Positions 16,319 through 54,266 are shown, numbered from the stretch's first letter. The stretch: 64,000 nucleotides of DNA from Vermamoeba vermiformis (GCA_045837725.1 JBEWZL010000079.1:1-64000), one strand, 5' to 3'. The notes: generated by a model from the sequence alone, not told the origin. Made by a program: numbers and translations.

Positions 16319-17764
16319 ATGTCTCTCTCGAGCATTTTGGCGCTTGTTATCTTAACGAGTCTCGCATCTGTTAGCTTTGCTCAAACCAAGCACTACGTCC
16401 TCGCATCTGCTACCGGCAACGGAAATGGAAACGATTGGACCAACGCATATCAAACACTTCCTGCTACTTTAGTTCGTGGAGACATTTACTACGTTGGCTC
16501 CGGTCAATACCCCAGTTTGACGCTAAACGATGCAGAATCTGGTTCAGAGTGGATTACTATTCAAAAAGCTACTGCCAACGACCACGGCACTGATGTTGGA
16601 TGGAGCGATGAATATGGTACTGGCAATGCAAGTTTTCCCACAATCACTGTCGCCTCGTCGTACTACAATTTCAACGGATCTGTTGGCGGCGGTCCTGGAT
16701 CGTGGTTCACGGGCCATGGTTTTGACGTCTATTCAACTGGAAATGTCGGCCAAGCCCTCGTCTTCTTCAATGCTGACGTGCATCACATAATGTTGAGTCA
16801 CACCAGTGTACATGCGGATCGAGACACGCTAACTGCTGCCATGAAACTGACCTTAGGCGGCAATCACGACATTACTGTCAGCTACTGCGCGGGCTACAGC
16901 GTGTTTGGCGTCTTCTTCCACCTCGCTAACGTCTACAACATGGTCGTAGAGTTCTCATACTTCAAAGACAACAAGAGCACAGCAGACTGGCACAGCGAAG
17001 GTATATCGTTCCTAGGCACAGTCACCAACTTGATCGTTCGTCACTGCGTCTGGTGGAAAATTGAAGGCTCGGCGTTCTTGGCAGGTGTCAACAACGGCGA
17101 CGCGTATAACTGGACTGTCCACGGCAACATCTTTTCGAACTCTTGGAGCCCTGCGCTGTATATTGCTGATGACGGAGGGTCCATGAGCGGTCTCCAATAC
17201 TACAACAACTTGATTACCAACGTCAACACTTCATCTGGTGGCATCTACATTTCAAAAGGCTCAGACAACAAAGTCTACAACAACATGTGGTATCATAACG
17301 TAGTCAACTCTTTGTCTATCTGGGCTGACGCAGACTACAACTGGTTCTACGACAACTATCGCATTGACGGTTGTGCTCCCATCTGCGACTTGAACCCTGA
17401 TGCTGTTGCTGCTGAAACGCACGGTGTCGCTGGTACTGGCAATCCGTTCGTGAATTGGGATGGCTTGGCTGATCCTACTACGAGCTCAGTTGACTTTCGT
17501 TTGAAGGAACACACCGCGCCTGGTCTCGACGTAGGCGCTCCGTTCAATGTTGACATGTTTGGCACAGAGCGATTATCAGCACAATGGGATCGTGGTGCCA
17601 CACAATTCACCGTTCCCGTGCCTGTTTCTCCCGTGTCTGCTCCTGCTTCATCACCTCAATCGATGGCACCGAAGACTCTCAGCTCACCAACCGCGAACTT
17701 ATCCAGCAATGGAGTGGCGCTTGGTGCTTCATTGTTTGGTTGGGTACTCGCTTCTCTTATGTAA
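16319..17764 (+). CDS. Intronless secreted, probably GPI-anchored, right-handed beta-helix (pectin-lyase-like) protein
   Basis: 481-aa ORF with signal peptide, Asn-rich beta-helix-like repeats, DFRL...DMFGTER...WDRGA motif, Ser/Pro linker and hydrophobic tail. Confidence 0.75.
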   Translation: MSLSSILALVILTSLASVSFAQTKHYVLASATGNGNGNDWTNAYQTLPATLVRGDIYYVGSGQYPSLTLNDAESGSEWITIQKATANDHGTDVGWSDEYGTGNASFPTITVASSYYNFNGSVGGGPGSWFTGHGFDVYSTGNVGQALVFFNADVHHIMLSHTSVHADRDTLTAAMKLTLGGNHDITVSYCAGYSVFGVFFHLANVYNMVVEFSYFKDNKSTADWHSEGISFLGTVTNLIVRHCVWWKIEGSAFLAGVNNGDAYNWTVHGNIFSNSWSPALYIADDGGSMSGLQYYNNLITNVNTSSGGIYISKGSDNKVYNNMWYHNVVNSLSIWADADYNWFYDNYRIDGCAPICDLNPDAVAAETHGVAGTGNPFVNWDGLADPTTSSVDFRLKEHTAPGLDVGAPFNVDMFGTERLSAQWDRGATQFTVPVPVSPVSAPASSPQSMAPKTLSSPTANLSSNGVALGASLFGWVLASLM

Positions 17765-18239
17765 GAATTGATAAATAAACTTCCTTATTTTAGTGCGTCG
17801 ATTTTTCTGAAGACAACGACACTCTAGTAGACTTGTCAGTATAATATTGAATTTTTTAAGTTAATGTAAGTACTAGAATCGATTAATGATCTCTTCCTAA
17901 TTCCGCGTACGCGTAAGTTAGCGGCGCAAACTTGACGGCGGGTGATTGGCTGTCGGGTGACATTTTGTGACAAGAACATCGGTTATTTTCATAGTTTGAC
18001 ATTATACCTTAACAGTGAACCACGAATGAAGAGTATCACTGTGTTCGTCTTCGTTCTTCTTGCAGCGTCAAGCAGTTGCACAACGCCACCAACATATCCC
18101 TTTTCAGCCGGCCAATGTTTTTAGATAAAAATTATACAAAAATTCAGGACCGTTGATTTTTGGTAATCGCCAGAAGAGACTGTAGTACAAAAAAAGGTAC
18201 AATTTTGTTGGGTGATGTCCATTGACAGTGCGCCACACC

Positions 18240-18700
18240 CCTGAGTAGATCCGGATCGGCCCCAGATCCGATCCACTTCCCCCAGCTCATTTCTTTGTAT
18301 TATTAATAAAAAATGATTAATCACAATACAATACTTGGTTGAGCAAGCACATGTATTCATAGGGAGGAATTTGGCCGGGCCCTAACCCATCCAAGTGTCG
18401 AAGTCACGTTGAGGTGACTGACACGACCAAAACCATGTGATTCATCAATAGAAAGGTCGCAGGCATCAAGGCGACACCCCTCCATAAAGGAGACCGTACA
18501 ACAAAAGAGTGTCCGCTACGGCAAGTGACAAGTCACTTTCTAGCCCATCCAACTCAGTGCCAGTGAGAGTGCTGTTCCGAACCAGTGGTGTTGCCGAGGC
18601 AACACGACCTCCAGACCATACTCTGACCCACATCGTCGAGAATCAGCGCGTAACTTTCTCATTGTAGCGGCGCTAAGGCTTCACCCTTAGACGCCGGATG
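18240..18700. other. Hairpin-dense non-coding tract inside the transposon (candidate structured RNA)
   Basis: At least seven closely spaced stem-loops and no long ORF. Confidence 0.45.
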
Positions 18701-18751
18701 TATTACAAACAGTATTTATTATACTACCTACAGCAAGTTTGTTAACAAATT

Positions 18752-21700
18752 CTATAGTTTAAGCTTACGACAAACGGGTTTGTGTGTGTTCTTACAAGTA
18801 CTGCACAGAAAAATTGGTCTTTTTTTGTCGGAGCTGCATTTCCAACATACTGTGCTAATTTGCTTTCGTTTACGTGGGTTGCACGTTAGGCAAAAACCAT
18901 TGACTCGTCTTTCAAAGACATCTTCGCTCTGAACTCGCACATGAGAAGAGAGACTTTTTGATTTCAGATCTTTTGCGACAATTATTCTTCGGGTTCTGAG
19001 AGATCTGTGTCTAGTTAACGGAGATGCATTTTTCTTGTTGCGTGCAGACTGCTCTTGACTAAGTTCATCCTTTAAAATTTGCAAGAAATCTCGAAATTGA
19101 TCTTCGTCATTGTTCTGAACTTTCTTATAGTAGCGATAGCACTGGTATGAATTCCAAGTGATTATATTTATAATATTTTCCCATACTACTTGTGTCCATT
19201 TTGTTAATCTGAACGGCCAATCAAACGTATGAATTTGTCTTGCCGCCTCGTCGACAAATCCTTTGGTCTTTGTGTATTCTTGGACAATAAGTGGCTTTGT
19301 ACTCTGCATTTACAACTAAATTAGTAACTTAATGACGCAAGCATAAGAAGCTTACTGCAGTCGACGGTACTCCTTGACACAGATCTGTTGCGGCTGATGA
19401 CGCTGCAATGAAATTAGATAAACACTTTGATTAATATTGAACTAACCATCGACGTAATTGGAATAGAGATTCATAATTGCATTGTTATCGCGGAAAGAGT
19501 GAGCAATAATCGGACCAGCAGTGCCTTCTTTTTCAAACGTCAAGTGTTGCCCTGGTTCTTGTAGAGGATTTTGCAAAGTACCAAATATATATGAAGGAGC
19601 ATTTTTCTTTGCCGACAACAAGAATTTAATGCCTTGTTCATCCAAAATAGTAGCCGTCTCTTCCGCACCCCATTTGCTATCTGTTATAATCACGTGGCCA
19701 GGCTTGTGATTGTTCAATTTCTCGGCTAGCTCTAACAGCTGATATTTAGGAGGCAGACATAGACCCAAGAATATATCGAAGTCCCAAATGTAGTAAGATT
19801 CATCGGCGGCCAAGTAGAGTAAGACACCGTTTGGATGTGGCTTGCTTGGAATGAATTGCTGAGTTACGTTAGTTAAAATGTATTATCTAACGATAACAAG
19901 TACTTACTCGGGCATAAAAGCGGCCCAAAAACGGCAAGATGGTTTCATCAAAGGTAATTTTTTGAGATGGAGACCAATTTTTTTGGCATCGTTGAGCTAC
20001 TTCTTGAGTAACTTTGTCAATATCAAAGTGGAAATAATGCATAATCTGTTCGAATCGATCTCGGCCCATTTTTGACGATATCCATTCGTTGCCATACAAG
20101 GGATCTTTGATAGTCCAGTAATCTCTGAGGCGACGACCTTTAACACAACGACTTGCGATCCCAATGGCAATGAATATATCAAATTCTGGCAGCGTAAGTG
20201 GTTTCCAATTTGTTCTTTGCTTTTGAAAAGTAACTTTGTCTTCTTCGGAAGGTTCAAACTCGGTACTAAAATATTCTTCCAAATGCTTTACGTTTGAAAC
20301 CCAACTTGGTACCGTTAGCAATCCTAATTGTGATCAGAATGTTTGTTTTCTCGTTAGCTTATGTAATATTTACCTTTGTATTTTTGTTGCATTTTCTCGG
20401 CCCAAAGTTTGAGCTGTGCAGTTTTGTTCAAACGCCATGTTTTTCGTTCTTGCATAACTTCAGAAAATGAAAGACTGGCATAACGGTTTATATCTTCGAC
20501 CATCTGTAAACGGGTTTGCTCTGCGGTATTCATTAATTCTGAGAATATTCAACGCTCGAATGAATGATACGTACCAGGCAAAAAGCGCGAAAAGATGCTA
20601 GTGTTGGTCATAGGCTGCTTATTGGTGGGCCCGCTATCCAACGTACAAAAGGAGGTACGAACAAAACCTTTACTTGTTTTATCTCGTATTTGCCAACCTT
20701 GATTGGATAGTGCATGCGGAGATTGGAAGTACTTATTCATTATTAATAGTGCATTTGCCCGAATGTCCGACTCGCATATCCAATTTGTTTGCACCTTCTT
20801 ATTTTTCCAATCGATGAGCCATTCCCATAGATCCTAGCCAAAATAAGACAACCATTCGATTATCTCGCATACATACATTATGGAAGCGTACTTTGTAAAT
20901 GCACTTGATTTGCTCAAGAGCTATTTTGCTTCCCGGTGCCACTTTATCCACCATAAGGAGATCGTCGGTTACAGCCTTAACAACAATATGCGAGTCTGGC
21001 AGCTGCCACTCCTTATCTATCGAAGGTGTCTGAAGCTTTGGTTGGCCTTTTTCCAATTGCTTGGGTTCTTAACGGTGCATTAGAATTAAATTAGCCGCGT
21101 TGCACTTACTTTTTTTAGGAGGAGCAATTAAGTTGTCTTCTGTTTCCAACAGGTCGCAAGCGACACTGATTTTACGTTTCCTTGTTTGCATCGTACAGGA
21201 AGCAGGAACGGCAGTCTTCAACGGAAATTGAATGCCGACTTCGGCTTGTTTAATGTAAACCACTGCACTGGCGGAGCGAACACCACCGCTTAACTGCGAA
21301 AGAATAGCAACACGCTCCTACTTGACATTTAGTCCGAGATCGCTTGTTGGAAAAAACATACCCGTGTAACTTTAGCATCATTATAATTGTTCCAATGTAA
21401 AGCACAGCGTTCGTTGACAACAACTCCATAATGTCCATTATTGCGAGTTTTTCCATCGTGCCAAATTACACCATAAAGTAGGTACAAAGTTCCTTCAAAG
21501 TGAACGGATGTTTCGATTGTCAAACGTCGAACTTGCTTGTGTTCATCGAGCTCGGAGAAACGATTGATTCGAATCAATAACAGTTTTGGGTGGTTCAACA
21601 CCTGTTTGCGTAATTGGCAATCCTTTTTATCATTAGATCGAGTACTTCGTTAACAAACATTGATAATAATTACCTTTGCTTGATATTCTACCACTTCCGG

Positions 21701-22628
21701 AGCAAAAAAATCGTCAATTCCTTGTTGAACACTCTGAACGGATGGCTTGAAGTAGATGTCGATCCCTGTACTACATTAGTTATGTGTCGCAAAAACAATA
21801 CGTACAGTTGATCTGCTCCACTCTTCCGTCGTTCACTTGGGTAGAATTTTCATCAAATATCGCCGTACTGAATTGGATAGCTAGTTCTCGCCGCGAATCT
21901 ACCAAATTTAACAAATCTTGTAACAATAGGGTAGCGTCTTGTTGTCCAGCTTGCACAATTGTTCGTACATTAGAATTGATAGCGAGAGTAGTTGCTAGTC
22001 TTTCAAACAGAACTGCAGCATCGACCGGTTGGCTTTGTTCAATGAATTTGAGTAAATACTCGTTGACTAGCATTGCAATCTCGGTAGTTGACTGTTCAAA
22101 CAGTTGCCGTAGACACGGGACCTTTGCAATAAGTACCAAGCATACGTGCAGAAAACAACGAACACTTGGGTTAACAAACCCAAATTTAAACAGCGGAGAC
22201 TATCGCAGAAAATTAGGATTACACTGCACAAGATTATTATTCTTACCTCAAATTCAAATGGATATAATTGTATCTTTCCTATCTTATGCGAAGTAAAATT
22301 GCCTCTATTTTTTGGCTGGCTGTAAATTTGTTAGCACAGAAGACAGATCGACCGTCGAATTTTCTTACTTTAAAATGTTATTAATGATCGCAATAAATTC
22401 ATCTTTTGCTATATTGCCGTGATATGCTTCGTAGACCCAGTGAATGTCGCCCATTGAGAGACCACGCTCATTTGTTTCGTGGAAGTGGATCAACGACTGC
22501 ATGACATTTGGAGAAGCTATAAAACGTTGTAGATCGGTGTCTGAAGATACGACACATTAAAAATAAATTTTTAATAGCGCAAATAACATAGCCTTACCCG
22601 AAAAGACACGAACAAGCGACATCTGCAT
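18752..22628 (-). CDS. USP deubiquitinase - chromodomain - piggyBac transposase fusion (~1,100 aa, 13 predicted introns)
   Basis: USP boxes GFVNPSVRCFLH, GQQDA, HDGKTRNNGHY, WNNYNDAKV. Chromo-like IKCIYKVRFHN/DLWEWLIDWKNKKVQTNWICESDI. Transposase TFDET, QFIPSKPHPNG, ITDSKW, GFVDE and Cys-rich tail. All GT-AG joins checked stay in frame. Confidence 0.8.
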
Positions 22629-22876
22629 CCAAAAAAAATAGTACCTTAGTATTGGCTAAAAAATGTAGTAAATTACTCTAGAACGTCCAAATTTAATTGA
22701 GATTTTCGCCGTTTAGGTAAAATAAAAAATATGAAAATTCGATGACAAATTAGGATCGGGTTCATTTACCCTACTGAAGGCCGGCAATTGGTGGTATCTT
22801 GCAACAACATAAGCATCGAACTGGTTCAAAACAGAAAATGGCGAATTACTGCAGAAAAAGCACGTGAGTATTTATT

Positions 22877-25703
22877 TCAAGGAATTCCATCGAGATCACT
22901 CAGCTGGTTGAAAGCGGCAATGAATGCATTGGGATCGAACTCAGGAACTTCAAAAAGTCCAAGCGAGCAAAGCAACACTTCATAATGGAGCTGTAGGTAC
23001 TGTAGCACCAGATCCAGTGGCTGCTCGCCAAATATTGTCGCCATAGCAAGCCCGCCTGCGTCACTTAACTCTAACTCATCCACGACACCGGCAACTCGTT
23101 GGTACAATTCGCAAACTTGGACCAGCAATGGATCTGCGAAACTCAGTGTCAACAAAGTGCATGATAAAAATGACTCCTCTTACTGATCGTTGGTACTGAA
23201 TGAGCCAAGGGGTGTTCGCGTAGGAATTTATGACGATTGAATAGCTCAAATGTGTAGAACGGCTCGACGGAGAATTCAGTGTATGCATCCAGGTTCACTC
23301 GACGAACAAACCACGTGCCTAATGAATCATTACACAAATTGACACAGTGCGAAAGTTGCTTACCGATGAATTGGAAGACATCTTCTTGATATTCAACCGC
23401 AATTTCGAGAGGAAGACAGTGATAACAATTGAGCCGCACCATGTCATTCCTTGCTGAATCTGCCCCGCGATTGACGACAAATGAGCCATCAATCATCGTG
23501 CCGCCCGCCCCACCAACTGTTATAACCCCCTCGCGCCAATTACTCCAATTATTACCAGGGAAATTTTTCCGAAGTAACATCGACGTACAACCTGGAGTGA
23601 ATTAATCCATCGCGCCGTTTAATTTGCAGAATTGGAATTACCTATTTGACTGAGGCCATTAAAGGAGGAGTCTATTGTTAAGCCACCAGTAAATTCTGCT
23701 TTGGCCAAATCGAACTTGGAATACAGCTCCCCAACCTGAGCTTTCGTTATTTTGATTGAAGTGATTAAACGTCAAGATTGTCACTTACTTTAAGATGTTT
23801 TCTCGGGCCGAAGATACATGATTTACCAACGGCACATTCATGCAACTGCTCGATGAGCAAAACTTTGCAAGACGCACAATACAACAGTTGATTGTTGTGC
23901 AAAAGCAAGTGAGCAAACGCCCAACAACCTCCGGTGGGGAAAAATATATCAATCAAAGGCTTAATAGGTTCCGTATTCCGAGCCAGTCCACTGCGCGAGA
24001 GTTTTCGTTTCTTGGCATTTGTCGAAGGCCGCAGTGCTCGCCTCCACTGCATTAGCTTTTGTTTGTTGGTTGTCCAGGTCGACAAAGAATAACCAAGAGT
24101 TGTATTTGCCTCTATAAAATAATTAGTGGAAGTACAGACCAAATATTAACAGCTTACCACAGTTGCGTTTCTCGGACTCGTAAATGTTTACATCTACATT
24201 ACGAATTGTCGCCACCCAACGTATAAATCTGGAATATACACCGACTACTCGATGTTTCAAGTATGATTGCATTCGTTTTGGTTGTAAAAGCATCATATTG
24301 TCCACGAGCGGAATGTCAACATCCCCTAAGCACAATGCATTAGAAATTAATTGTTGCGTAAACGGTAACGCACTCACGAGTCCCAGTCTGCGAACGCTCC
24401 TGCACCACAAAGCGCCACCCCGGTGGGGCATCACAGTTAGCCACCAATTCATCTGGATCTACGAAACCAGAGACCGTAAACACAACAACGTCTCTTGCAT
24501 TGCCCAAGTACTTGTCATCTAATTGATAAAATAAATACAAATGCAATAACAATAGTTTGTTGCGTACTATCAGCATGCGATCCCATGGCGGGGAATACTT
24601 CTCGGTTATTTGCCCGAGCTAGTTCTATGTCATCCTCCGATAAAGGCGGATAGGCAGTAAACATTACACAAGTTGAGTGACTGCAAAAGTAGCCAAAGTC
24701 GCGTAGTTTTCGGAATAGTAGCTGGATGCACTCGGGTGTTTGATTCGTAGAATCACGGTAGAAATTGCTTCATAGTAGTTGTTAGAATAAATAAAATTGA
24801 TATATTGAATCATACTTATAGGAGATACCGGTGCCTGTATTTCCGTACACTGCATACAGCCGTTTGGTAACTGCAGTCAACCGTTCATTGATCTTGCCCT
24901 CTGGTGAGAACAAAATGTCTTGGAACAGCGAGGATTTAAAGGATGAGTATTCAGACTCGTCAAAAAACTGGTGATAGACCAGAATATCAACGCCGAAAGC
25001 TGAGACCATTTCCGTAGCCCTGTGTCACGAGATCATTATAATTAACCCCACTGACGGTAATCTTACTTACGCAGGTAATTCAGTATGCGTACTCTCCTCA
25101 ATCAATTGTTCAAAGCAAGTAATAGGCTCGGAGTCAATAAAGGCGGTATCATTAAGGGTGTCGTAGATCGGTGAATCTAAAATTGTGACATTAGATTTAA
25201 TTGCTCAATACTATTTATCGATAAATACTTACCAATTTCAATTGGTTTTGTACAAATCAGGCTGCAGTTCCAAGTTAAAGAGTAGAACCGCTCTAAAACG
25301 CCATCTGAATTTTTCACCTTCAAATCGCCAGCAATTATCTGCTTTACGAACTCCTCAAGCTTGCCGTAGGGCATTGTAATATTGGGCTCCTCTGCTAAAA
25401 GGGTCGAGATTACCGCCCTAAAAACTAGCCGTTACTAATTAAGTTAATTTAATTAATTAAAATTTTAATTTACGCAACAAATTCCCAAAACTAATAAGAA
25501 ATAAATACGTACCTTAGAGGAATATTTTTCTTATTTTCTGGATCAATTTTGAATAAACGCCGAAAGGCTGCACCAACGATCTTGTTTTGGCTGGTGGCGG
25601 ACAAGCTAACCACCCTATAGTCATGGCGGACGCTAGACCGGTCAACAGAATTGTCCGGTCCGCATTCCACAACTCTAGTGTGCACATGTGTTGTCGCCTC
25701 CAT
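22877..25703 (-). CDS. Transposon cargo gene with an AlkB-family (ALKBH2/3-like) 2OG-Fe(II) dioxygenase domain plus uncharacterised flanking domains
   Basis: Spliced peptide YHQFFDESE...KRLYAVYGNTG..ISY...MGSHADNDKYLG...IPL...MQSYLKHRV...RWVATIR matches the HxD...H...RxxxxxR signature. Followed by AKKRKL and CASC...HEC. Confidence 0.75.
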
Positions 25704-27545
25704 CCAGAAACAGATAAATGGAAAAATTCGGGACTGTATTTTTGTCTACAAGATTTTACTCATACACACAACGATGGGTATAAATAATTCAACGTTGCGT
25801 ATGCCAAATTATGGAAAACACCATCTTACAACGGCAGATTTAGTGATCCTCACCCGATCTCCGCACCACCCTTCGCCATAAATTACTGTAAGCTTAGAAT
25901 AATTAAAATACCCTACCAAAAAATCAATGTTGCTAATAACCCGCTAAAATAATTGTCCCTTCAATATTTATAAATTTTTTTTCGTGCGCCGGGATCAAAG
26001 GGATATTATCAAGTCAGCCACAGCGCACACACGTTCAACGACACCAATATGCTCTATTATGGCTCATCAAGTGTTACGTCGGAACAATATGTATTAGGAG
26101 TGCCATCAGAGCCGTTCAGTGTTGGATTGGTGCTGCATCCGGAAAAAGTTCCCGCTCATAATGGCTTCTTTCTTCAATTTGACTGGAAACCTTCGAATTG
26201 CGCGCCTGGAAACTCATTTAATACCTCACTAAGAGCTGATGGGTAATTGAAGTTCGATTAGTTCAAAGATCTAATTTTAGTTTTAGATTCGCAATTGTTT
26301 TTCTGAAAGACTTGCCCACGAATGAGCAAGTAGAACAATCTATTGGTACTCTTGGTATTGGAAGAGTACCGAATACATATTCATTCGGCTATGTATCAAC
26401 TTACAATGAGTTTTACGTTTGTCGTTGGTGAGTGTTGTCGGATTCGGTTCGAACAAAAGGCTTATCTTTCTCTGTAATAGGAATGATCCCTTGCCGATAG
26501 TGCAAAAACCGGGAATACTCCGCAAAGTGTGTCAAGTGTTTCCTTATTCTGATTTCCCAATGACTTGTGGCGATGCTTGGCATTTTGACCTTGTTCTCGA
26601 ATACAATCAGCTCTCAGTAAGTGATTATAACTGCCATAAGACTAGTTTATTTAATCGATATTGTTTAGTGGATTGGCGACGGTGGCGTGATATATTCAAT
26701 TCCGTTTGAAATGGATCCCGTTGATTATTTCATTGGACTGAGTTTCGGAAACGATAATTATTACCAACAACAAGAATTAATAGAAGCCATGTATTACCAC
26801 GTTGAGAAGACAACACAATTCGATGTAATTGAATCGAATTTAACCGGAGACTTCAGATTTTGCGGATCTGCCGAACCTCTCGAACAATCGATTAAACTGA
26901 TTAACAATGGAGATAATGAATACGGACTGGCAATCCTCGTATCCGCGTAAGAGTGCTCAACTATTATTTCAGTACCGAACCTAATTTACTAATTTGACAC
27001 GTGTCACTCAGATTCTCTTTCTTCTTTTCTTCTCGTGACATGCCAGATTGTGTCCCGCACGACAACTTAAGACTTGATGGCACCGGGTTCCCCCGCATTG
27101 ATGCTTTTGCTTATTCCGCGTACGATCAAAAGTTCTACATTTGCGATTGGTTAGTAGCGCCATCGACAACAACATGATATTCAACTTAGTTTAATAGGAA
27201 CGGACCCAATCAGACCACTCCTTGTACGCCTGTTCTGGCTGTGAGCAGAGGGTTCATTCATTGCGAATCAACTTACAACTTCATTTTATACTTTCAAAAC
27301 GGCGTACTCAACGTAAGTACTGTTTCTTCAGAATAGTAGCGATCTTGTGCAAGCTAATCTTACTGACCGTTTAGGTGTACCTCAACGACGCTCCGTTTTT
27401 TACTGCCAATCTCAACTTTGAAGAGGAAGCTTATTACGCTGGATTCGCGGCCAGCTCTGGCAACATTGATCGCCATTGCCGCCAGGTCATCTCCAATTGG
27501 ACGATGAACACTGACTTGAGTTCAGTGAATCTCACCGAGTATCTC

Positions 27546-27626
27546 CCGCCTGTCAGTCCGCCCGTCACTCCGCCAACCGATGCACCTGTCACTCCGCCAG
27601 TCACACCCCCTGTCACGCCTGCACCA
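27546..27626 (+). repeat. Pro/Thr linker repeat (PPVT)n in the lectin gene
   Basis: PPVSPPVTPPTDAPVTPPVTPPVTPAP. Confidence 0.8.
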
Positions 27627-28530
27627 AAGTTTGTGTTCTTGAATAGTGCAAGACTGGTCAACCAAACTTTCAGAATAATGTTCGGATCTGGCATGATGTA
27701 TCACTCTGAGCCGTTGAACGCGCTGGACCAAGTCGCTTTTGCATCAAGTTTTACTTGGACTCCAACGAACTGCGATTCAGTCTATAATGGTGCTGATGGG
27801 TGGGCCTTACATTTTTTTGTGACACGTGTCAGTGAACTAACGGATCTGTCGTCTTAGATGGGCGTTTTTCCTGACGAAGAACATTCCGACATTAGAACAA
27901 GTGCAAAGTTCAGGTGGTGGTCAGCTTGGAATTCAACAGGTTCCAAATGTAACAATGGTTGCTTACAGCGCTACTTTCAATGAGTTCTGGTTCGCGAACT
28001 GGTATGAAATTTCACGCTTCTTGAACTTTCACGAACTTAAATAGTCATTAATGAATATATAATAGGACAACGCCCCTTCTTGATCTTCATTGGCAGTCAG
28101 TTCGTACACCTGTCAATGGTCCGAAATACACTTGCGGAGGCTCATTCAACTTCACGATATCTTACGATCAGCCTACCTTAAAGGTACGTACTTGCATTTG
28201 TATCGTTAAGCGCTTCCGAGAATTGAGAATGATTTTATCTTGTAGATGCGTCTCAACAACGAAGTTGTACTTTCGACAGAATTCATTCTCGACCAATCAA
28301 CACCTTATTACTTAGGTTTATCCGGCGGTACAGGCGGCGGATACTTCGTTCAAGATTTTACGAACTGGTCCATCGCCCGTCCTTCTCCGCTAATTTGAAC
28401 AACGTAGCACTATTTGCCACGAGCAGTTAGAGAATTTTACAGTGTAATATATGATATATTGTCAGTCGCGAAATACAACCGAACTCTTTATATTTTTAAG
28501 TCCGATTTAATAGTCGACCTAAAAATTTGA

Positions 28531-28617
28531 TTGGCTGTCAGTCAACGGTCCGTAAAACACTTGCGGAGGCTCGTTCAACTTCGCTATAACTTGCGATCAG
28601 TCTACATTAAAGGTAAG
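28531..28617 (+). pseudogene. Orphan exon remnant of the lectin family
   Basis: Closely resembles exon 28090-28188 (cacttgcggaggctc.ttcaacttc...cgatcag.ctac.ttaaaggta). Confidence 0.6.
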
Positions 28618-28897
28618 TCTATATACAACCGTATTTACGCGTTTCCGATCAATCAGTCAAGATTTTACAAACTGGTCATTTGTCAGTCCTGCTTTGAGCT
28701 AGATCTGTTAATGTCAAATACGATAACTGGTAAAAGAAGGTTTATCGTTCGATATTGATCAAAAATACGAAGCATAATTCGATATGCAACTTCATCGGGT
28801 TTTTTCTCCGACAAGACTGACAAAAAGTGCACGCAAAACTTTTCGTTCACAACTTTTATCAATAAAGGCCAGCCATACTACCACAACTCTTTATAAA

Positions 28898-31438
28898 ATG
28901 AAGTTGAATAGGTATTTAATTGTATCTCTACTGGCCTTGTTCTCCGCCGTGCTCTGTACGTGGAATTTTGACCCGCAGATCATCCAAACGAGAAATGACG
29001 ACACTTCGCTACTTTACTACGGAGGATCGAGCCCCAATAGCGATTACTTCATAGAAGGCGTACAGCCAGAACCCTATAATACTGGCTTGGTCCTCTATCC
29101 AACAAAGCTGCCAGTAAGAGAAGGATTTTATCTAGAGTTCGATTGGCTTCAGAGGCCCCTTTCTGCAAGAAACTCTTCATTGACGGCATTTGGCGGCAAC
29201 GGGTAATACATATATACATTATTCAATTTTATTGAATTGACCTAATTTTGGCCTGATCAGATTTGCTGCAATTTTTCTTAAAGATCTGCCCACGAATGAG
29301 CAAGTAAAGAGTTCCGTTGGTACTCTCGGAGTAGGCAGAGTGCCTAATGCTTACGTTATGGGGTATTCTGCAACTTACAACGAGTTCTATGTTTGCCACT
29401 GGTATGTGTTGTCGGATTCACTCAGGACAAGCATGATAATAATAATTGTAATAGGACCGAGGCGTTACCGATAGTACAAACACCAGCATTTCTCCGCAGC
29501 TACTGCAACGTCATTCCTTATCAGCACACACTGACATGTAACGTCACTGCTTGCTCGTTTTATGTCAGATCGTATTACGACTACATCGAGGTAAGGTCAC
29601 GGCAAGATAACAATATTATATATGACTATTAATACATTATTTAATAGGTTTCGTTGACAACCATGCAAAACGTGTTGTTTAGAGCTCCTTGGTCGATGGA
29701 TTCGGAGGAGGATTATTACGTGGGCTTCAGCTTTGGAAACGACAATTACTACAACTATCAACAACACGAAGGATTTGTGTACTATTATAGAGAACTCCGA
29801 ACCAACTTTGACTCTTCGCAAGATCTGAACACCCAAATTTTTCAAGTGGAAACTTGCGGCCTTGTATCTCGATTCAATCCTTTTAGACTGACCTCTGGCA
29901 CTGATCAATTTGGCAGCTCTAATCTTATTTATGTGGTTCGTACGCACAACGGCTTTGTTACTAAATATACTTGGACTCCAACGACCTGCGACGAATTCGG
30001 CATTGGCGGAGACGGGTGCGTAAAAAAGTGGAAATTTCGTTGAATATGATACTTATCGCTTTGATTTGTTTAGGTTTTCGTTCTTCTTATCAAAATATGA
30101 TCCCGAGTGCGCTACGGATACTATTGCAAATTTTCCAAATATAACCGCTGTAACTTATTCAGCTGCCAAAGACCTATTTTGGGTTTGTCAATGGTACGGT
30201 TAACTAAATATAATATTATATTAATTATAACTGTTTGTTCTGTAGGGAAAAACCGATTGGTCAGTTCGATGATTCTTCCGCATGTGTTTCTGCTGCCAAT
30301 CCTTTGCCGCGACTCGGCTGTGGCAATTCTTACAACTTTGTCGTTTATTTTGCTAATAATGCTCTGAGCGTAAGTTAACCTCCGTAGTTTCTATACCTAT
30401 ATTTAATTCTAATGAGAATTACGGTTCAGGTTTTTGTTGACAACACGTTGATTTTGACGACGCCGTTCAGCATGGAGGATCGGCCGTACTTCCCTGGCTT
30501 TGCTGGCACCACGGCCTCGCCGTTCTATTTTGAGCAGTACATCACAAATTGGGTCATTGAAACTGATTTGAGCGTGGCGAATCTGTCCGACTATCTTCCT
30601 GCTTCTTTTATCACCCCACCTGTTGCCGATACTCCTTCTTTAGTGACGTTGGGCACCGCACAAAAAATCGGTCAAACGGTTCGATTGACCACTGGCGGCA
30701 GCGAATCAGGACTGGTCTATTTCTCGCAACCGATTGGTGGAAAGGATCTTCAGCCATTTGCGTCGAGCTTCACTTGGACCCCGACCAATTGCGACGCAGA
30801 ATACAACGGTGCTGACGGGTATTTTTTTAAACTCCGATTCGTATAATTTTAGATTTGAGTCTAATAGGATTTTTTTTACCTGCAGTTGGGCGTTCTTTTT
30901 GACGAAAAATGTTCCGACGTTGGAACAAGTCCAATCGTCATCAGGAGGCTTGCTCGGCATTCAAAACGTGCCTAATGTCGTAATGGCTGCTTACAGTGCC
31001 ACATACAACGAGTTCTGGATCTCGAATTGGTATGACAGACAATACTTTCCAAAAAAGATTAAGGTTAATAATATTAATATTTAAGGACCTTACCGTTCCC
31101 AGACAATTTCCATTGGGTCTCAGCGAATGCTCCCGTGTCTGGCCCGAAATACACGTGTGGTGGCATTTATACTTTTACCGTTGTATACTCTGAGCCGAAC
31201 TTGGAGGTACGTTACTCATCTAATACTATTGTTGTATTATACGCCATATATTACCGAAAATTTGATATTAACTCTGTTTTTTTACGGGCAGATCCGCCTC
31301 AATAATCAAGTCATGATTTCAGCCCAAGTTGATATTGACCAATCAACGCCTTATTACTTTGGTTTATCTGGTGGTACAGGCGGTGGATATTTCCAACAAG
31401 ATGTGACGAATTGGATCGTTGGTCGTCCTGTGTTTTAA
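28898..31438 (+). CDS. Secreted protein with three tandem L-type lectin-like domains
   Basis: Signal MKLNRYLIVSLLALFSAVLC; repeated GGNG/GGDG/GADG-F/W and YxGF/LSG motifs; multi-exon paralog of the disrupted gene. Confidence 0.75.
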
Positions 31439-51520: not shown

Positions 51521-52019
51521 TGTCACTTATTTAGATATACGCTGATTTTCAATGGTAAACATGCGGGAGAGCCATCGCCTGGTGTCACAAACTGGATTCG
51601 AAAATCATCGATAGAACATTATCGCAACACACCAGTCCAAGGTCTTGAATTCGGTTTGGATCCCGCTAAGAAGCCACAAGCACCTCGGTTTGCGTAAGTA
51701 GTAGTACTACGTTCAAAACGTTTAATTATCAACTTACGTACGTCTCTGCAGCTGGCGCCGAAACAATCCCGATTCTCCTTCTGCAGCAGGACTAACAGTG
51801 TACGGCCCTTGCGTGTTGATGAAAGAAGTGTGGACTGAAGCCCACGGCTTTGTGCCAAAAACGATTGGAAAGAAATTTCGATTTGATGTGTGACACACGT
51901 AAACGATCACATGATTACCAAAAGTGGAATCCGTTTCGTTATGACCTCTGCGTAATGGTAGTTTAATACTTTCTTGGATTGAATAACAACGAACGGCGCG
52001 AACGGGCACAGCGACGAAG

Positions 52020-52340
52020 ACGAGCGCGGGAGAGACACGGCACGAGCGGGGAGAGGGGGGGGAAGCGAAAAGAGGGAAGCGCAGGGAAAGGGGCGAAAAA
52101 GAGAGAGACGGCGGAAAGAGAGGGAGAAAGACACAACGAAACAGGCAACGAACCGCCGCGGAGGAGAAGGACCAAGGAGAAAACGAGGAGAGAGACAGGA
52201 GAGGAGAGGAGGGAAAAGAGGAGGGAGGAAGAGAAGGGGGGAGAACGGAGGAGGAGAGAAGAGAGGGAGAAAAGGGAAGGGAAAGGGAGAAGAGAAGGAA
52301 GGGGAGGAAGAAAGAAGGAAGGAGAAAAGAAGAGAGAGAA
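52020..52340 (+). repeat. Polypurine (GA-rich) low-complexity tract
   Basis: About 320 bp with almost no T, sharply unlike the flanking composition. Confidence 0.9.
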
Positions 52341-52500
52341 GAGTGACGTTGCTGCAAGAAACGTGTTGTTGCATCAAAACGAAGCGAAACTGACAGACTT
52401 TGGCATGTCACGCATTGTGGATGATGACAACAACGAGGCACAAGTTGCAAGTTCCGAGCAAATCATTTCACAACTTGAAGACGTTTTGTCGCGCTTGTAA
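52336..52500 (+). pseudogene. Tyrosine-kinase-like fragment
   Basis: DVAARNVLL...KLTDFGMSR (subdomains VIb-VII), then directly a C-terminal-like EQIISQLE; rest of the kinase domain absent. Confidence 0.6.
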
Positions 52501-52661
52501 AATTTACAATAACACTGATTCTGCTACATTGTGTCTGACAGCAAGACTAGCTTACGAAATTGCAACGTTTTCAAAATTAAAAAATACGATATTAGTATTG
52601 TGTCAAGACTCACCATTAACGTGAATCTAGATCGAAGAAAGAGACTGGGTCAAAGTAAATT

Positions 52662-54266
52662 TTAATTTTCATTCAGCAGTGCTTCGCTTTTGCTCTTCAA
52701 TTCGTCCTCGTTTGTGATTACTGGTGCATCCAAAAGTTTGTCTTGAATGAACTTCATCGGCAAGAAGTTGAAGCCCATTTTTTGATAATTAATTGGGTCT
52801 GCTATAATCCTCGATGCGTTTTGCCATTTTTGAACGTCGATTACATTCGGTCGAACGGGTCCTGAGCTCTCGTACAGATTTCGCAGCAAAAATCCATAAA
52901 GTGCTAAATTAATCCTATTAGAACTATATTACTTAATATAGATAGTATTCGTACGTAAGTAAGGAATAATAGGCGGATATAAGTTTTCTACAAGCTCCAA
53001 ATGTTCGCGACCTTCATTTTCAACGATTTGTTTGTATCGTTTTTCCAGCACTGCGTAATCGACTCTAATATCCTAAAACAAGATTAGTATGTTAATTTGA
53101 AATTTAATGATTAATTTAGGTGCCTACTTTCTCTTTTAACTTCACGAAGGGGTGGATGTACTTTGAAGTTAGTGCATCCATAATTGATTTGAATCCAACA
53201 AAGTTATTGAACTCAAATATTTGTCTCGCTACTTTAATAAACTTCGTCGTGTATTTAAGTCGTTCTTCAGTGGTGTTGCCGTTCAAAATGTATGACACTA
53301 TGACACGTGTCACATGCGTGCAATATTTGTGCCATTCAGCGCACTCCACTTCAAATGTAGATATGCCTAACATTAGTATTTGGTGCGGAGAAACATGTTC
53401 AAAGAAATGTCCGTCCATTAGAGTCATTTGTCGGGCTATTTCCAAGTACGGCAACTCGAACAATTTCTTATTAGCGTGTGTAGCTTCATCGACAAGTACT
53501 GAAGGGAAAGGAATTGATGTTGGAATAAATTTTCTATCTACTTTCTCTACCGCCTAAATTCAAAGATTAAAAAAATTATTATTATCCGAAAAAAATGTCC
53601 GATTCAGATCTGCTCCTGCTACAGCCAAGAACTTTTTACGTACTATTCGAAGAGCTTGCTTTAAGTGATGTATGGCCGAGTCAAATTTATTTATAGGAAT
53701 TGTCCCCAATTCTGCAATTAAATCTTCGAGCTGAATCACCAAAGACGGATCTCGGGATAAATCGTGCCACCCAATCGTTAAAAGCCATCGTCGTAATAAT
53801 GATCCTAATCTATAATTATCCAATAGCGTTAGTTAGTAATTAATAAACGAATATACCGCAGTATACTTGATATAAATCGCCCCGAATTCGAGATCTGACA
53901 GCTCTTGCGCGGCTCTGAACGTATTTCAAATTAAAGAAAACAAATAATAATATTTGAATATATTTATGCTATTTTTTGAAGGATATCTATTGCGGAACTG
54001 TTCCATTAATTCAGATCCGGATGTAAACATTGTGTAGGTCGTTAGGAACCGGTCCACCATATAAACGTCTATAAATAAATTAGTAAAATATTATATTATT
54101 ATCTGTAACGTATTTTATCGAAATTAAGGGAAAAAAAAGTTGGAATGTCAAACAGATCAAAGAAGAAAATCGTAAATTAATTACCCCATCGTGAAGTAAT
54201 CCGCTTTACTAATTGCGGCAGCGTTAGAAATCTATCTTCTTCGGCTAGAACGAACGGTTGTTGCAT
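52662..54266 (-). CDS. RasGEF (REM + CDC25 domain)
   Basis: TLPQLVKRIT, FLTTYTMF, EIARQMTLMD, FIKVARQ..FNNF, PPIIPY. Confidence 0.8.

Follow-up and report, generated by a model that had tools for sequence, protein, structure and literature searches.

A 64,000-nt stretch of Vermamoeba vermiformis DNA (GCA_045837725.1, JBEWZL010000079.1:1-64000; hereafter the window, with positions counted from its first letter) contains an insertion at positions 18098-26002. We find it likely that this insertion is a transposon of the piggyBac superfamily, autonomous and probably active in recent times, that belongs to an ATAT-inserting lineage, encodes a transposase fused to a ubiquitin-specific protease (USP), and landed in an exon of a secreted-protein gene. 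The element holds two genes, both on the minus strand and both with short GT..AG introns of 40-95 nt. Gene 2 is predicted to encode the transposase. Gene 1 lies 248 nt away, between the same two ends, and forms a separate transcription unit. A preliminary description, made from the sequence, had presented the element as a piggyBac carrying an epigenetic toolkit of chromodomain reader, deubiquitinase and AlkB-type demethylase. Its outline of the element stands: the boundaries are exact, the length of 7.9 kb is confirmed at 7,905 bp (unusually long for piggyBac), and there are indeed two spliced genes plus a structured non-coding tract, as seen from the gene models, the splice joints of gene 1 and the folding energy of the tract. 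Its account of the cargo has to be redrawn.

Gene 2 joins a USP, a chromodomain-like segment and a piggyBac transposase. Its features are given below, together with their conservation in L001, a 3,989-nt metagenome contig that holds a related element.
18752-22628, minus strand: gene 2, a 14-exon model of 1,084 aa comprising USP, chromodomain-like segment, piggyBac transposase and Cys-rich tail.
21246-22199, minus strand: USP (peptidase C19) domain, exons 4-7, identified by PF00443 and PDB matches.
20723-20918, minus strand: chromodomain-like segment, split by an intron at 20834-20876, strongly conserved in L001 and pointed to by a protein-language Atlas lead.
18752-20323, minus strand: exons 11-14, with the transposase core and the Cys-rich region C-terminal to it, identified by PF13843 and 52-67% identical to L001.

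The transposase core is that of a piggyBac. DDE_Tnp_1_7 (PF13843) matches three gene 2 exons at 62.4, 32.9 and 20.9 bits (E = 6.1e-17, 5.8e-8 and 2.5e-4, respectively), covering profile positions 28-349, and it also matches L001. The piggyBac identity first proposed is thus confirmed. Aspartates stand at the expected conserved blocks of the core and are identical in L001; these are candidates for the catalytic DDD residues. The tail of the protein shows a Cys/His pattern, again conserved in L001.

A USP domain is recognizable too. PF00443 matches the exon that carries the His box (exon 6) at 35.3 bits, against a curated cut-off of 23.9, and all 25 PDB matches of this exon are USP-family chains (Ubp6, USP2, USP21, USP25, and USP28). 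The GHY and ND of the exon align with the Ubp6 positions of the catalytic His and Asp/Asn. These matches bear out the deubiquitinase of the preliminary description, which had placed it, with the chromodomain, as separate cargo. That arrangement does not hold. Both are N-terminal portions of the transposase polypeptide, which leaves gene 1 as the sole cargo. The gene 2 model, built without RNA, predicts one polypeptide that joins USP, chromodomain-like segment, transposase and Cys-rich tail. Its introns are canonical GT..AG introns of 40-57 nt, its 1,084 codons are free of stops, and its exon borders recur in L001.

The segment between the USP and the transposase core is a probable, although unproven, chromodomain. 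In the protein-language Atlas, 26 of the 30 named matches of its first 42 residues belong to PF00385 clusters; the best match scores 0.93, with 186 of 256 features in common. The method is uncalibrated for protein parts, and we treat the result as a lead. Chromodomains are found on the DDE-type integrases of chromoviruses, where they are thought to steer insertion to marked chromatin. Chromoviruses are long terminal repeat retrotransposons and their chromodomain is C-terminal, whereas the chromodomain-like part in the window lies N-terminal of a piggyBac core and has no support from a profile hidden Markov model (HMM).

The element has exact boundaries, which we read directly from the sequence. 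The features of its two ends are as follows.
18094-18097, no strand: left copy of the ATAT duplication, read directly.
18098-18117, plus strand: left terminal inverted repeat, starting with CCCTTT, which pairs with the right end at 13 of 20 positions.
18153-18165, plus strand: left subterminal inverted motif, one of a pair of 13-14 nt, at a distance of 55 nt from the terminus; L001 has a related motif close to its end.
25914-25927, minus strand: right subterminal inverted motif, the other of the pair of 13-14 nt, about 75 nt from the right end.
25983-26002, minus strand: right terminal inverted repeat, finishing with AAAGGG, in inverted pairing with the left end.
26003-26006, no strand: right copy of the ATAT duplication, read directly; ATAT stands likewise at the L001 contig end.

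The ends resemble those of piggyBac elements but stand at another target sequence. The short inverted ends with a CCC start and a GGG finish are present, and the terminal 20 nt on the left are identical to the reverse complement of those on the right at 13 of 20 positions. The TTAA duplication typical of piggyBac is replaced by ATAT, both at the two ends of the element and next to the single end that can be seen in L001. We asked how often such a combination arises in the window. Among 7,555 CCC...GGG pairs spaced 2-9 kb apart, only two share the same 4-nt flanks and have at least 13/20 inverted identity. One of them is the 18098-26002 element; the other, at 24613-30183 with TTTG as its flank, is likely to be a chance resemblance. 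As ATAT is palindromic, a duplication and a repeat are not separable here by sequence alone. The boundaries are made firmer by the host gene, whose restored frame is a stronger argument than the similarity of the ends.

The host gene is split within its first exon.
18026-18097, plus strand: 5' part of the first exon of the host gene, with start codon and signal peptide, recognized by joining the frames.
26007-26243, plus strand: rest of the interrupted first exon, recognized by joining the frames and by comparison with a paralogue.

When 18026-18097 is joined to the sequence from 26007 onward, an open frame results, in which a mature domain comes after a signal peptide. The frame requires excision of the element plus 4 bases (or plus 1 or plus 7), and it is open after removal of the element and one ATAT. 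A paralogue of the host gene lies about 3 kb downstream at 28778-29204 (plus strand), in the same orientation, and shares 43% identity over 69 aa. Its signal peptide and the same domain fall within a single uninterrupted exon; therefore, the insertion splits one exon. The claim that excision restores a host open reading frame is upheld by both observations. Weaker matches were also noted at about 27.7 kb and 29.9 kb. The insertion therefore lies within a small tandem family of secreted-protein genes.

Relatives of the element are found in metagenomes, and one of them preserves the fusion. We detected three loci in a metagenome scan (L001, L002, and L003). From gene 2 residue 143 on, L001 encodes the USP, a basic patch, the chromodomain-like segment, the transposase and the Cys-rich tail, so that the order of USP, chromodomain-like segment and transposase recurs outside the window, as the preliminary description had proposed to check. 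Per-exon identity to gene 2 is 41-67% (31% for exon 8), exon borders are shared for exons 4-12 and 14, and Pfam finds UCH at 48.6 bits plus DDE_Tnp_1_7. The contig is cut within the USP region, ahead of the Cys box, and the gene 1 side of that element lies outside it. At its other extremity, L001 terminates in ...AAGGG followed by ATAT, aligned with the left terminus of the element in the window. A break right after ATAT is the pattern expected from an assembler at the edge of a repeat whose copies are all inserted at ATAT. ATAT looks like the target of this element family.

The other two loci, L002 and L003, are decayed, frameshifted copies, in which the chromodomain-like region is lost through an internal deletion that leaves the tail of the USP attached almost without a gap to the transposase. 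The decayed element on L002 lies at 1597-2441, and the L002 and L003 contigs share 1,992 nt at 99.7% identity.

The fusion appears to be restricted among proteins related to the transposase. A full HMMER scan of a representative library with one transposase exon yielded 352 proteins at E ≤ 1e-3. The best four of the 352 are short, exon-sized predictions of 43-77% identity, all of which end in a conserved intron at the same place. Neither a UCH nor a Chromo domain occurs in the 10 longest of the 150 transposase relatives listed, which suggests that the fusion marks a narrow lineage. A word-based search with the transposase exon against longer proteins, a weak search of one length class, returned nothing, and a scan of viral contigs with the transposase alignment found no relatives.

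Several features suggest that the element has moved recently. Its duplications are identical, both of its genes have intact frames, and that of the host gene can be restored. In the water-metagenome run X5, the contig pieces listed show 5 differences in 1,690 nt on the element, and the one flank piece listed shows 10 differences in 275 nt. These figures fit recent spread. A second run, X6, is labelled as another organism and contains contigs at least 99% identical to gene 1. X5 and X6 have four gene 1 variants in common (at 23084, 24836, 24848, and 24972); therefore, the same allele circulates in both. We regard the element as probably an autonomous, recently active cut-and-paste transposon, a reading drawn from its sequence features.

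Gene 1 is a transcribed and spliced passenger.
22877-25703, minus strand: gene 1, 12 exons, 743 aa, no stop, with 9 of its 11 introns seen as joints.
24158-25019, minus strand: candidate 2-oxoglutarate (2OG)/Fe(II) dioxygenase (AlkB-like) region, gene 1 exons 4-7, proposed from a motif chain, with negative HMM tests.

The X6 contigs cover 22872-25697 and include nine exact joints that correspond to 9 of the 11 gene 1 introns; one of the nine was absent from the prior prediction. A loose contig end is compatible with a tenth. The same contigs hold nothing on gene 2 or the flanks. Two raw-read RNA runs labelled with the source species, X21 and X23, gave 0 reads across the whole 10 kb, even on the host genes, and hence provide no test. 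Expression and splicing, which the preliminary description had asked to see in RNA, are thus confirmed for gene 1 and without support for gene 2. The predicted gene 1 protein has a Cys/His-rich stretch behind the candidate domain and then about 340 more residues without a known family. A viral contig scan with gene 1 exon 8 found no relatives. In exon 5, at 24569-24766 on the minus strand, PF21789 (a family for the C-terminal RNase H portion found in transposases of the P-element/THAP9 type) scored 16.9 bits, below its cut-off of 24, and we judge this match to be probably due to chance.

The odds that gene 1 encodes an AlkB-type 2OG/Fe(II) dioxygenase, as predicted from its motifs, are about even. 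The family itself was found by no HMM test, with the spliced protein included, and the AlkB (PF13532) domain of the preliminary description is therefore not sustained. The candidate domain spans four exons in three frames. PF13532 had no match at E ≤ 10 in 10 gene 1 exons, nor in three exons of one frame translated together with the two introns between them, stops being written as X. Searched against the spliced gene 1 protein, E. coli AlkB alone (phmmer and blastp) and an HMM of 81 E. coli-type AlkBs returned nothing. With an HMM built on 31 diverse members of PF13532, taken from bacterial genomes, spliced gene 1 scored -1.0 bits and gene 2, the control, -1.6 bits. PDB searches by phmmer with single gene 1 exons and with the three-exon read-through had no match. 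In the Atlas, exon 7, which carries the second His and the RxxxTxR motif, had an unnamed best match at 0.87 and gave no dioxygenase lead.

Evidence in favor of the dioxygenase comes from the arrangement of motifs. A chain HxD...H...RxxxTxR occupies residues 293-384 of the spliced gene 1 protein; this motif was picked post hoc. It occurs in 837 of 200,000 gene 1 shuffles (0.4%) versus 30 of the 31 fetched PF13532 members. When gene 1 is aligned to the 31-member PF13532 alignment by hhalign, one co-linear alignment of 193 columns results, in which the iron ligands H, D, H and the 2OG residues R, T, R are paired. This alignment is marginal (score 18.6, P = 0.049, probability 1.1%), and 4 of 150 shuffles score as high. 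An hhalign match of gene 1 to the E. coli-type AlkBs covered 13 columns and was spurious. Gene 1 is not assigned here to the AlkB family, and its function is unproven.

A number of results weigh against the explanation that we favor, or against parts of it. The evidence rests on one copy of the element: a second insertion was not seen, and no read or contig bridges an empty site. The differences found in X5 and X6 (4 synonymous, 5 non-synonymous, and 2 intronic) are too few to show selection. Gene 2 is without RNA support, as the X6 contigs fall on gene 1 only. Within its USP, the exon with the Cys box scores 15.4 bits against PF00443 (E = 0.015, profile positions 2-108), which is below the cut-off; judged by eye, a Cys occupies the expected position, and a PDB search with this exon gave no USP match. 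On the last exon of gene 2, the Pfam scan reported no match to PF13842, the piggyBac zinc finger, at E ≤ 0.1.

The chromodomain-like segment and gene 1 contribute further points of this kind. At the exon level, PF00385 had no match at E ≤ 0.1 in the window or at E ≤ 1 in L001, a weak test because the intron takes the first strand out of the tested exon. A two-sequence profile of the segment found nothing in the PDB at E ≤ 10, and AlphaFold, run on the chromodomain-like exon with a two-row alignment, returned an all-helix model with a predicted local distance difference test (pLDDT) value of 51, which is unusable. The chromodomain claimed at the outset is thus favored by the Atlas and undetected by PF00385 in both the window and L001. 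For gene 1, Pfam found no family in its exons at E ≤ 10, the TET/JBP dioxygenases included, at which no separate search was aimed. Word-based searches, each weak and confined to one length class, found no relatives of exon 8 among longer proteins and no match to the frame with the second His among proteins of similar length. Taken over the four domains named in the preliminary description, PF13843 and PF00443 were found, while PF00385 and PF13532 were not, an outcome that the description itself had listed as counting against it.

The three-part toolkit, in which a chromodomain reader, a USP and an AlkB demethylase target chromatin or clear the element of its silencing marks, is unlikely on this evidence. 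It gains from a genuine USP (by PF00443 and PDB), from the Atlas lead for the chromodomain, from the H, D, H, R, T, R chain of gene 1 in its co-linear order and its rarity among shuffles, and from basic, nuclear-localisation-like patches in both the gene 1 and gene 2 proteins. A precedent exists in fungi, where TET/JBP dioxygenase genes occur in DNA transposons according to the sections cited (PMC12730594). It loses from the absence of PF13532 in exons and read-through, the two negative HMMs, the low hhalign probability and the missing Atlas lead for exon 7. These same negative HMM, PDB and Atlas results would be expected if gene 1 were some other passenger, such as a captured host gene or an accessory DNA- or zinc-binding protein, with the USP and the chromodomain-like segment serving only transposase stability and target choice. 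The Cys/His-rich stretch and the long part of no known family also fit such a passenger, as does the expression of gene 1 in X6 without trace of gene 2, which would suit a free-standing host gene in that organism as well. We consider this a tentative possibility, held back by a motif chain and a co-linear alignment that beat most shuffles and by the position of gene 1 between the two ends.

It is also conceivable that the 7.9-kb unit does not move as a designed whole and is a composite of a transposase-only element and a nested or adjacent insertion of gene 1. The two genes are separate transcription units, and no relative is shown with gene 1, the L001 contig being cut. However, we found no internal inverted repeats or duplications around gene 1. 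The right end, which lies past gene 1, pairs through its terminal as well as its subterminal motif with the left end, and nothing short of excising the entire 7.9 kb restores the host frame. We therefore rate a composite as very unlikely. Still less credible is an element that is immobile now, be it an old, fixed insertion or an assembly artefact. Such an element would account for the single copy and for the lack of an empty site, but not readily for identical duplications, intact reading frames, contigs at least 99% identical in an independent metagenome as well as in a run labelled as another organism, or a break in L001 exactly behind ATAT, as expected of a repeat border.

On the preferred explanation, a mobile, ATAT-inserting piggyBac with a USP-fused transposase, the parts of the element could work together as follows. 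The Cys-rich tail and the core would bind the CCCTTT ends and the subterminal repeats, excise the element and insert it at ATAT. The chromodomain-like segment may anchor the enzyme to marked chromatin, and the USP might strip ubiquitin off chromatin, repair or transposase substrates. As a separately transcribed passenger, gene 1 would travel between the ends; its product has a basic patch resembling a nuclear-localisation signal. Observed are the ends with their duplication, the interruption of the host gene, the domains of transposase and USP, a fusion conserved in L001, and a gene 1 that is spliced and expressed. That the element is active, that it is directed to chromatin, what its USP does and whether it has a demethylase or counter-silencing role, we infer from sequence. 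A bolder version, which we hold to be doubtful, would see a piggyBac lineage equipped with its own chromatin kit. In that version, a histone reader, a ubiquitin editor and a co-mobilised, AlkB-like enzyme that strips methyl groups off DNA or RNA would govern the choice of landing site and confer resistance to silencing during the spread of the element at ATAT among aquatic protists.

The element shares its basic design with described piggyBac elements. In common with the canonical piggyBac of Trichoplusia ni and the elements surveyed in PMC5381638, as far as the cited sections describe them, it has a DDE_Tnp_1_7 core, an apparent C-terminal Cys-rich region and subterminal repeats; its short, C-rich inverted ends fit the motif of that survey, and its duplication is likewise a 4-bp A/T palindrome. 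The survey, which covers 157 piggyBac-like elements, gives TTAA as the rule and places ATAT among rare duplications found in single sequences (PMC5381638, in the same sections). The element in the window differs from the canonical piggyBac by ATAT in place of TTAA, a length of 7.9 kb rather than about 2.5 kb, and a second gene. It differs further by 13 introns in the transposase gene and about 600 extra N-terminal residues (USP plus chromodomain-like segment). Teratorn of medaka is another member of the piggyBac superfamily with a large, non-transposase cargo between its ends; what it carries is an entire herpesvirus-like genome, some 180 kb in size, and the cited sections report no USP or chromodomain fusion (PMC5601938).

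Proteases and dioxygenases have been associated with other transposons. Fusions of transposases to ubiquitin or SUMO proteases are known from Ginger1 (OTU or Ulp1), Mutator-like elements (Ulp1) and Helitrons (OTU), and a Trichomonas vaginalis protein combines transposase_11 with Peptidase C19 (PMC2836005, in the parts cited). These cases share with gene 2 the joining of a transposon protein to a deubiquitinase-type cysteine protease, which in T. vaginalis is of the same C19/USP family. They differ in belonging to other superfamilies and, for Ginger1, in a C-terminal protease; no piggyBac case is mentioned in the parts cited (PMC2836005). A piggyBac fused to a USP or to a chromodomain did not come to light in the literature that we searched, although supplementary tables might list one. 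The fungal transposons that bear genes for TET/JBP dioxygenases include EnSpm, Harbinger, hAT, IS3EU, Kyakuja/Dileera/Zisupton and others, with some of the genes upstream of the transposase in the same orientation, and an anti-silencing role has been proposed for them (PMC12730594, in the sections cited). Their likeness to the element in the window would be a dioxygenase passenger on a cut-and-paste transposon, for which gene 1 is the only candidate; piggyBac and AlkB go unmentioned in those sections (PMC12730594).

piggyBac is both a model of cut-and-paste transposition and a genome-engineering tool, and its TTAA specificity and single-gene layout are textbook traits. The family described here departs from them by its ATAT target, by a deubiquitinase and a probable chromatin reader inside the transposase, and by an expressed passenger gene. 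It thus offers a natural system for studying how target choice is set, and why transposon superfamilies without kinship repeatedly hold ubiquitin or SUMO proteases. Should gene 1 indeed be a dioxygenase, it would also tell whether transposons outside fungi carry demethylases against silencing.

The left part of the element, downstream of gene 2, is non-coding and structured.
18098-18751, minus strand: non-coding left tract with many local hairpins, recognized by folding against shuffles.
18353-18435, minus strand: non-coding block conserved with L001 (78% identity over 83 nt), corresponding to L001 3662-3741, downstream of the stop codon of that element.

The tract has a minimum free energy of -193 kcal/mol, compared with -168 +/- 5 for shuffles (z = -4.7; 0 of 100 shuffles as good), and Rfam has no family in 17500-26500. 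Within the conserved block, a core of about 40 nt with a GGGCCC palindrome is nearly invariant, while coding DNA is only 69-77% identical. The 20-nt core of the block is unique in the window. The block may represent a site of binding or a signal for processing. That the tract adjoins the terminus suggests signals for transposase binding or processing.

No second copy of the element was found within the window. An 11-mer consisting of ATAT and the first seven letters of the left end recurs at 457-467 on the minus strand, where about 0.03 matches are expected by chance. Close to it lies a GGCCAAT motif, as at the left end of the element, with no broader similarity. Possibly a related, non-autonomous element ends here, its body being located at the window start or ahead of it.

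One further region of the window stands apart in composition. The bin 52001-53000 has a strong strand asymmetry (GC skew 0.30, AT skew 0.27), unlike every other 1-kb bin of the window.

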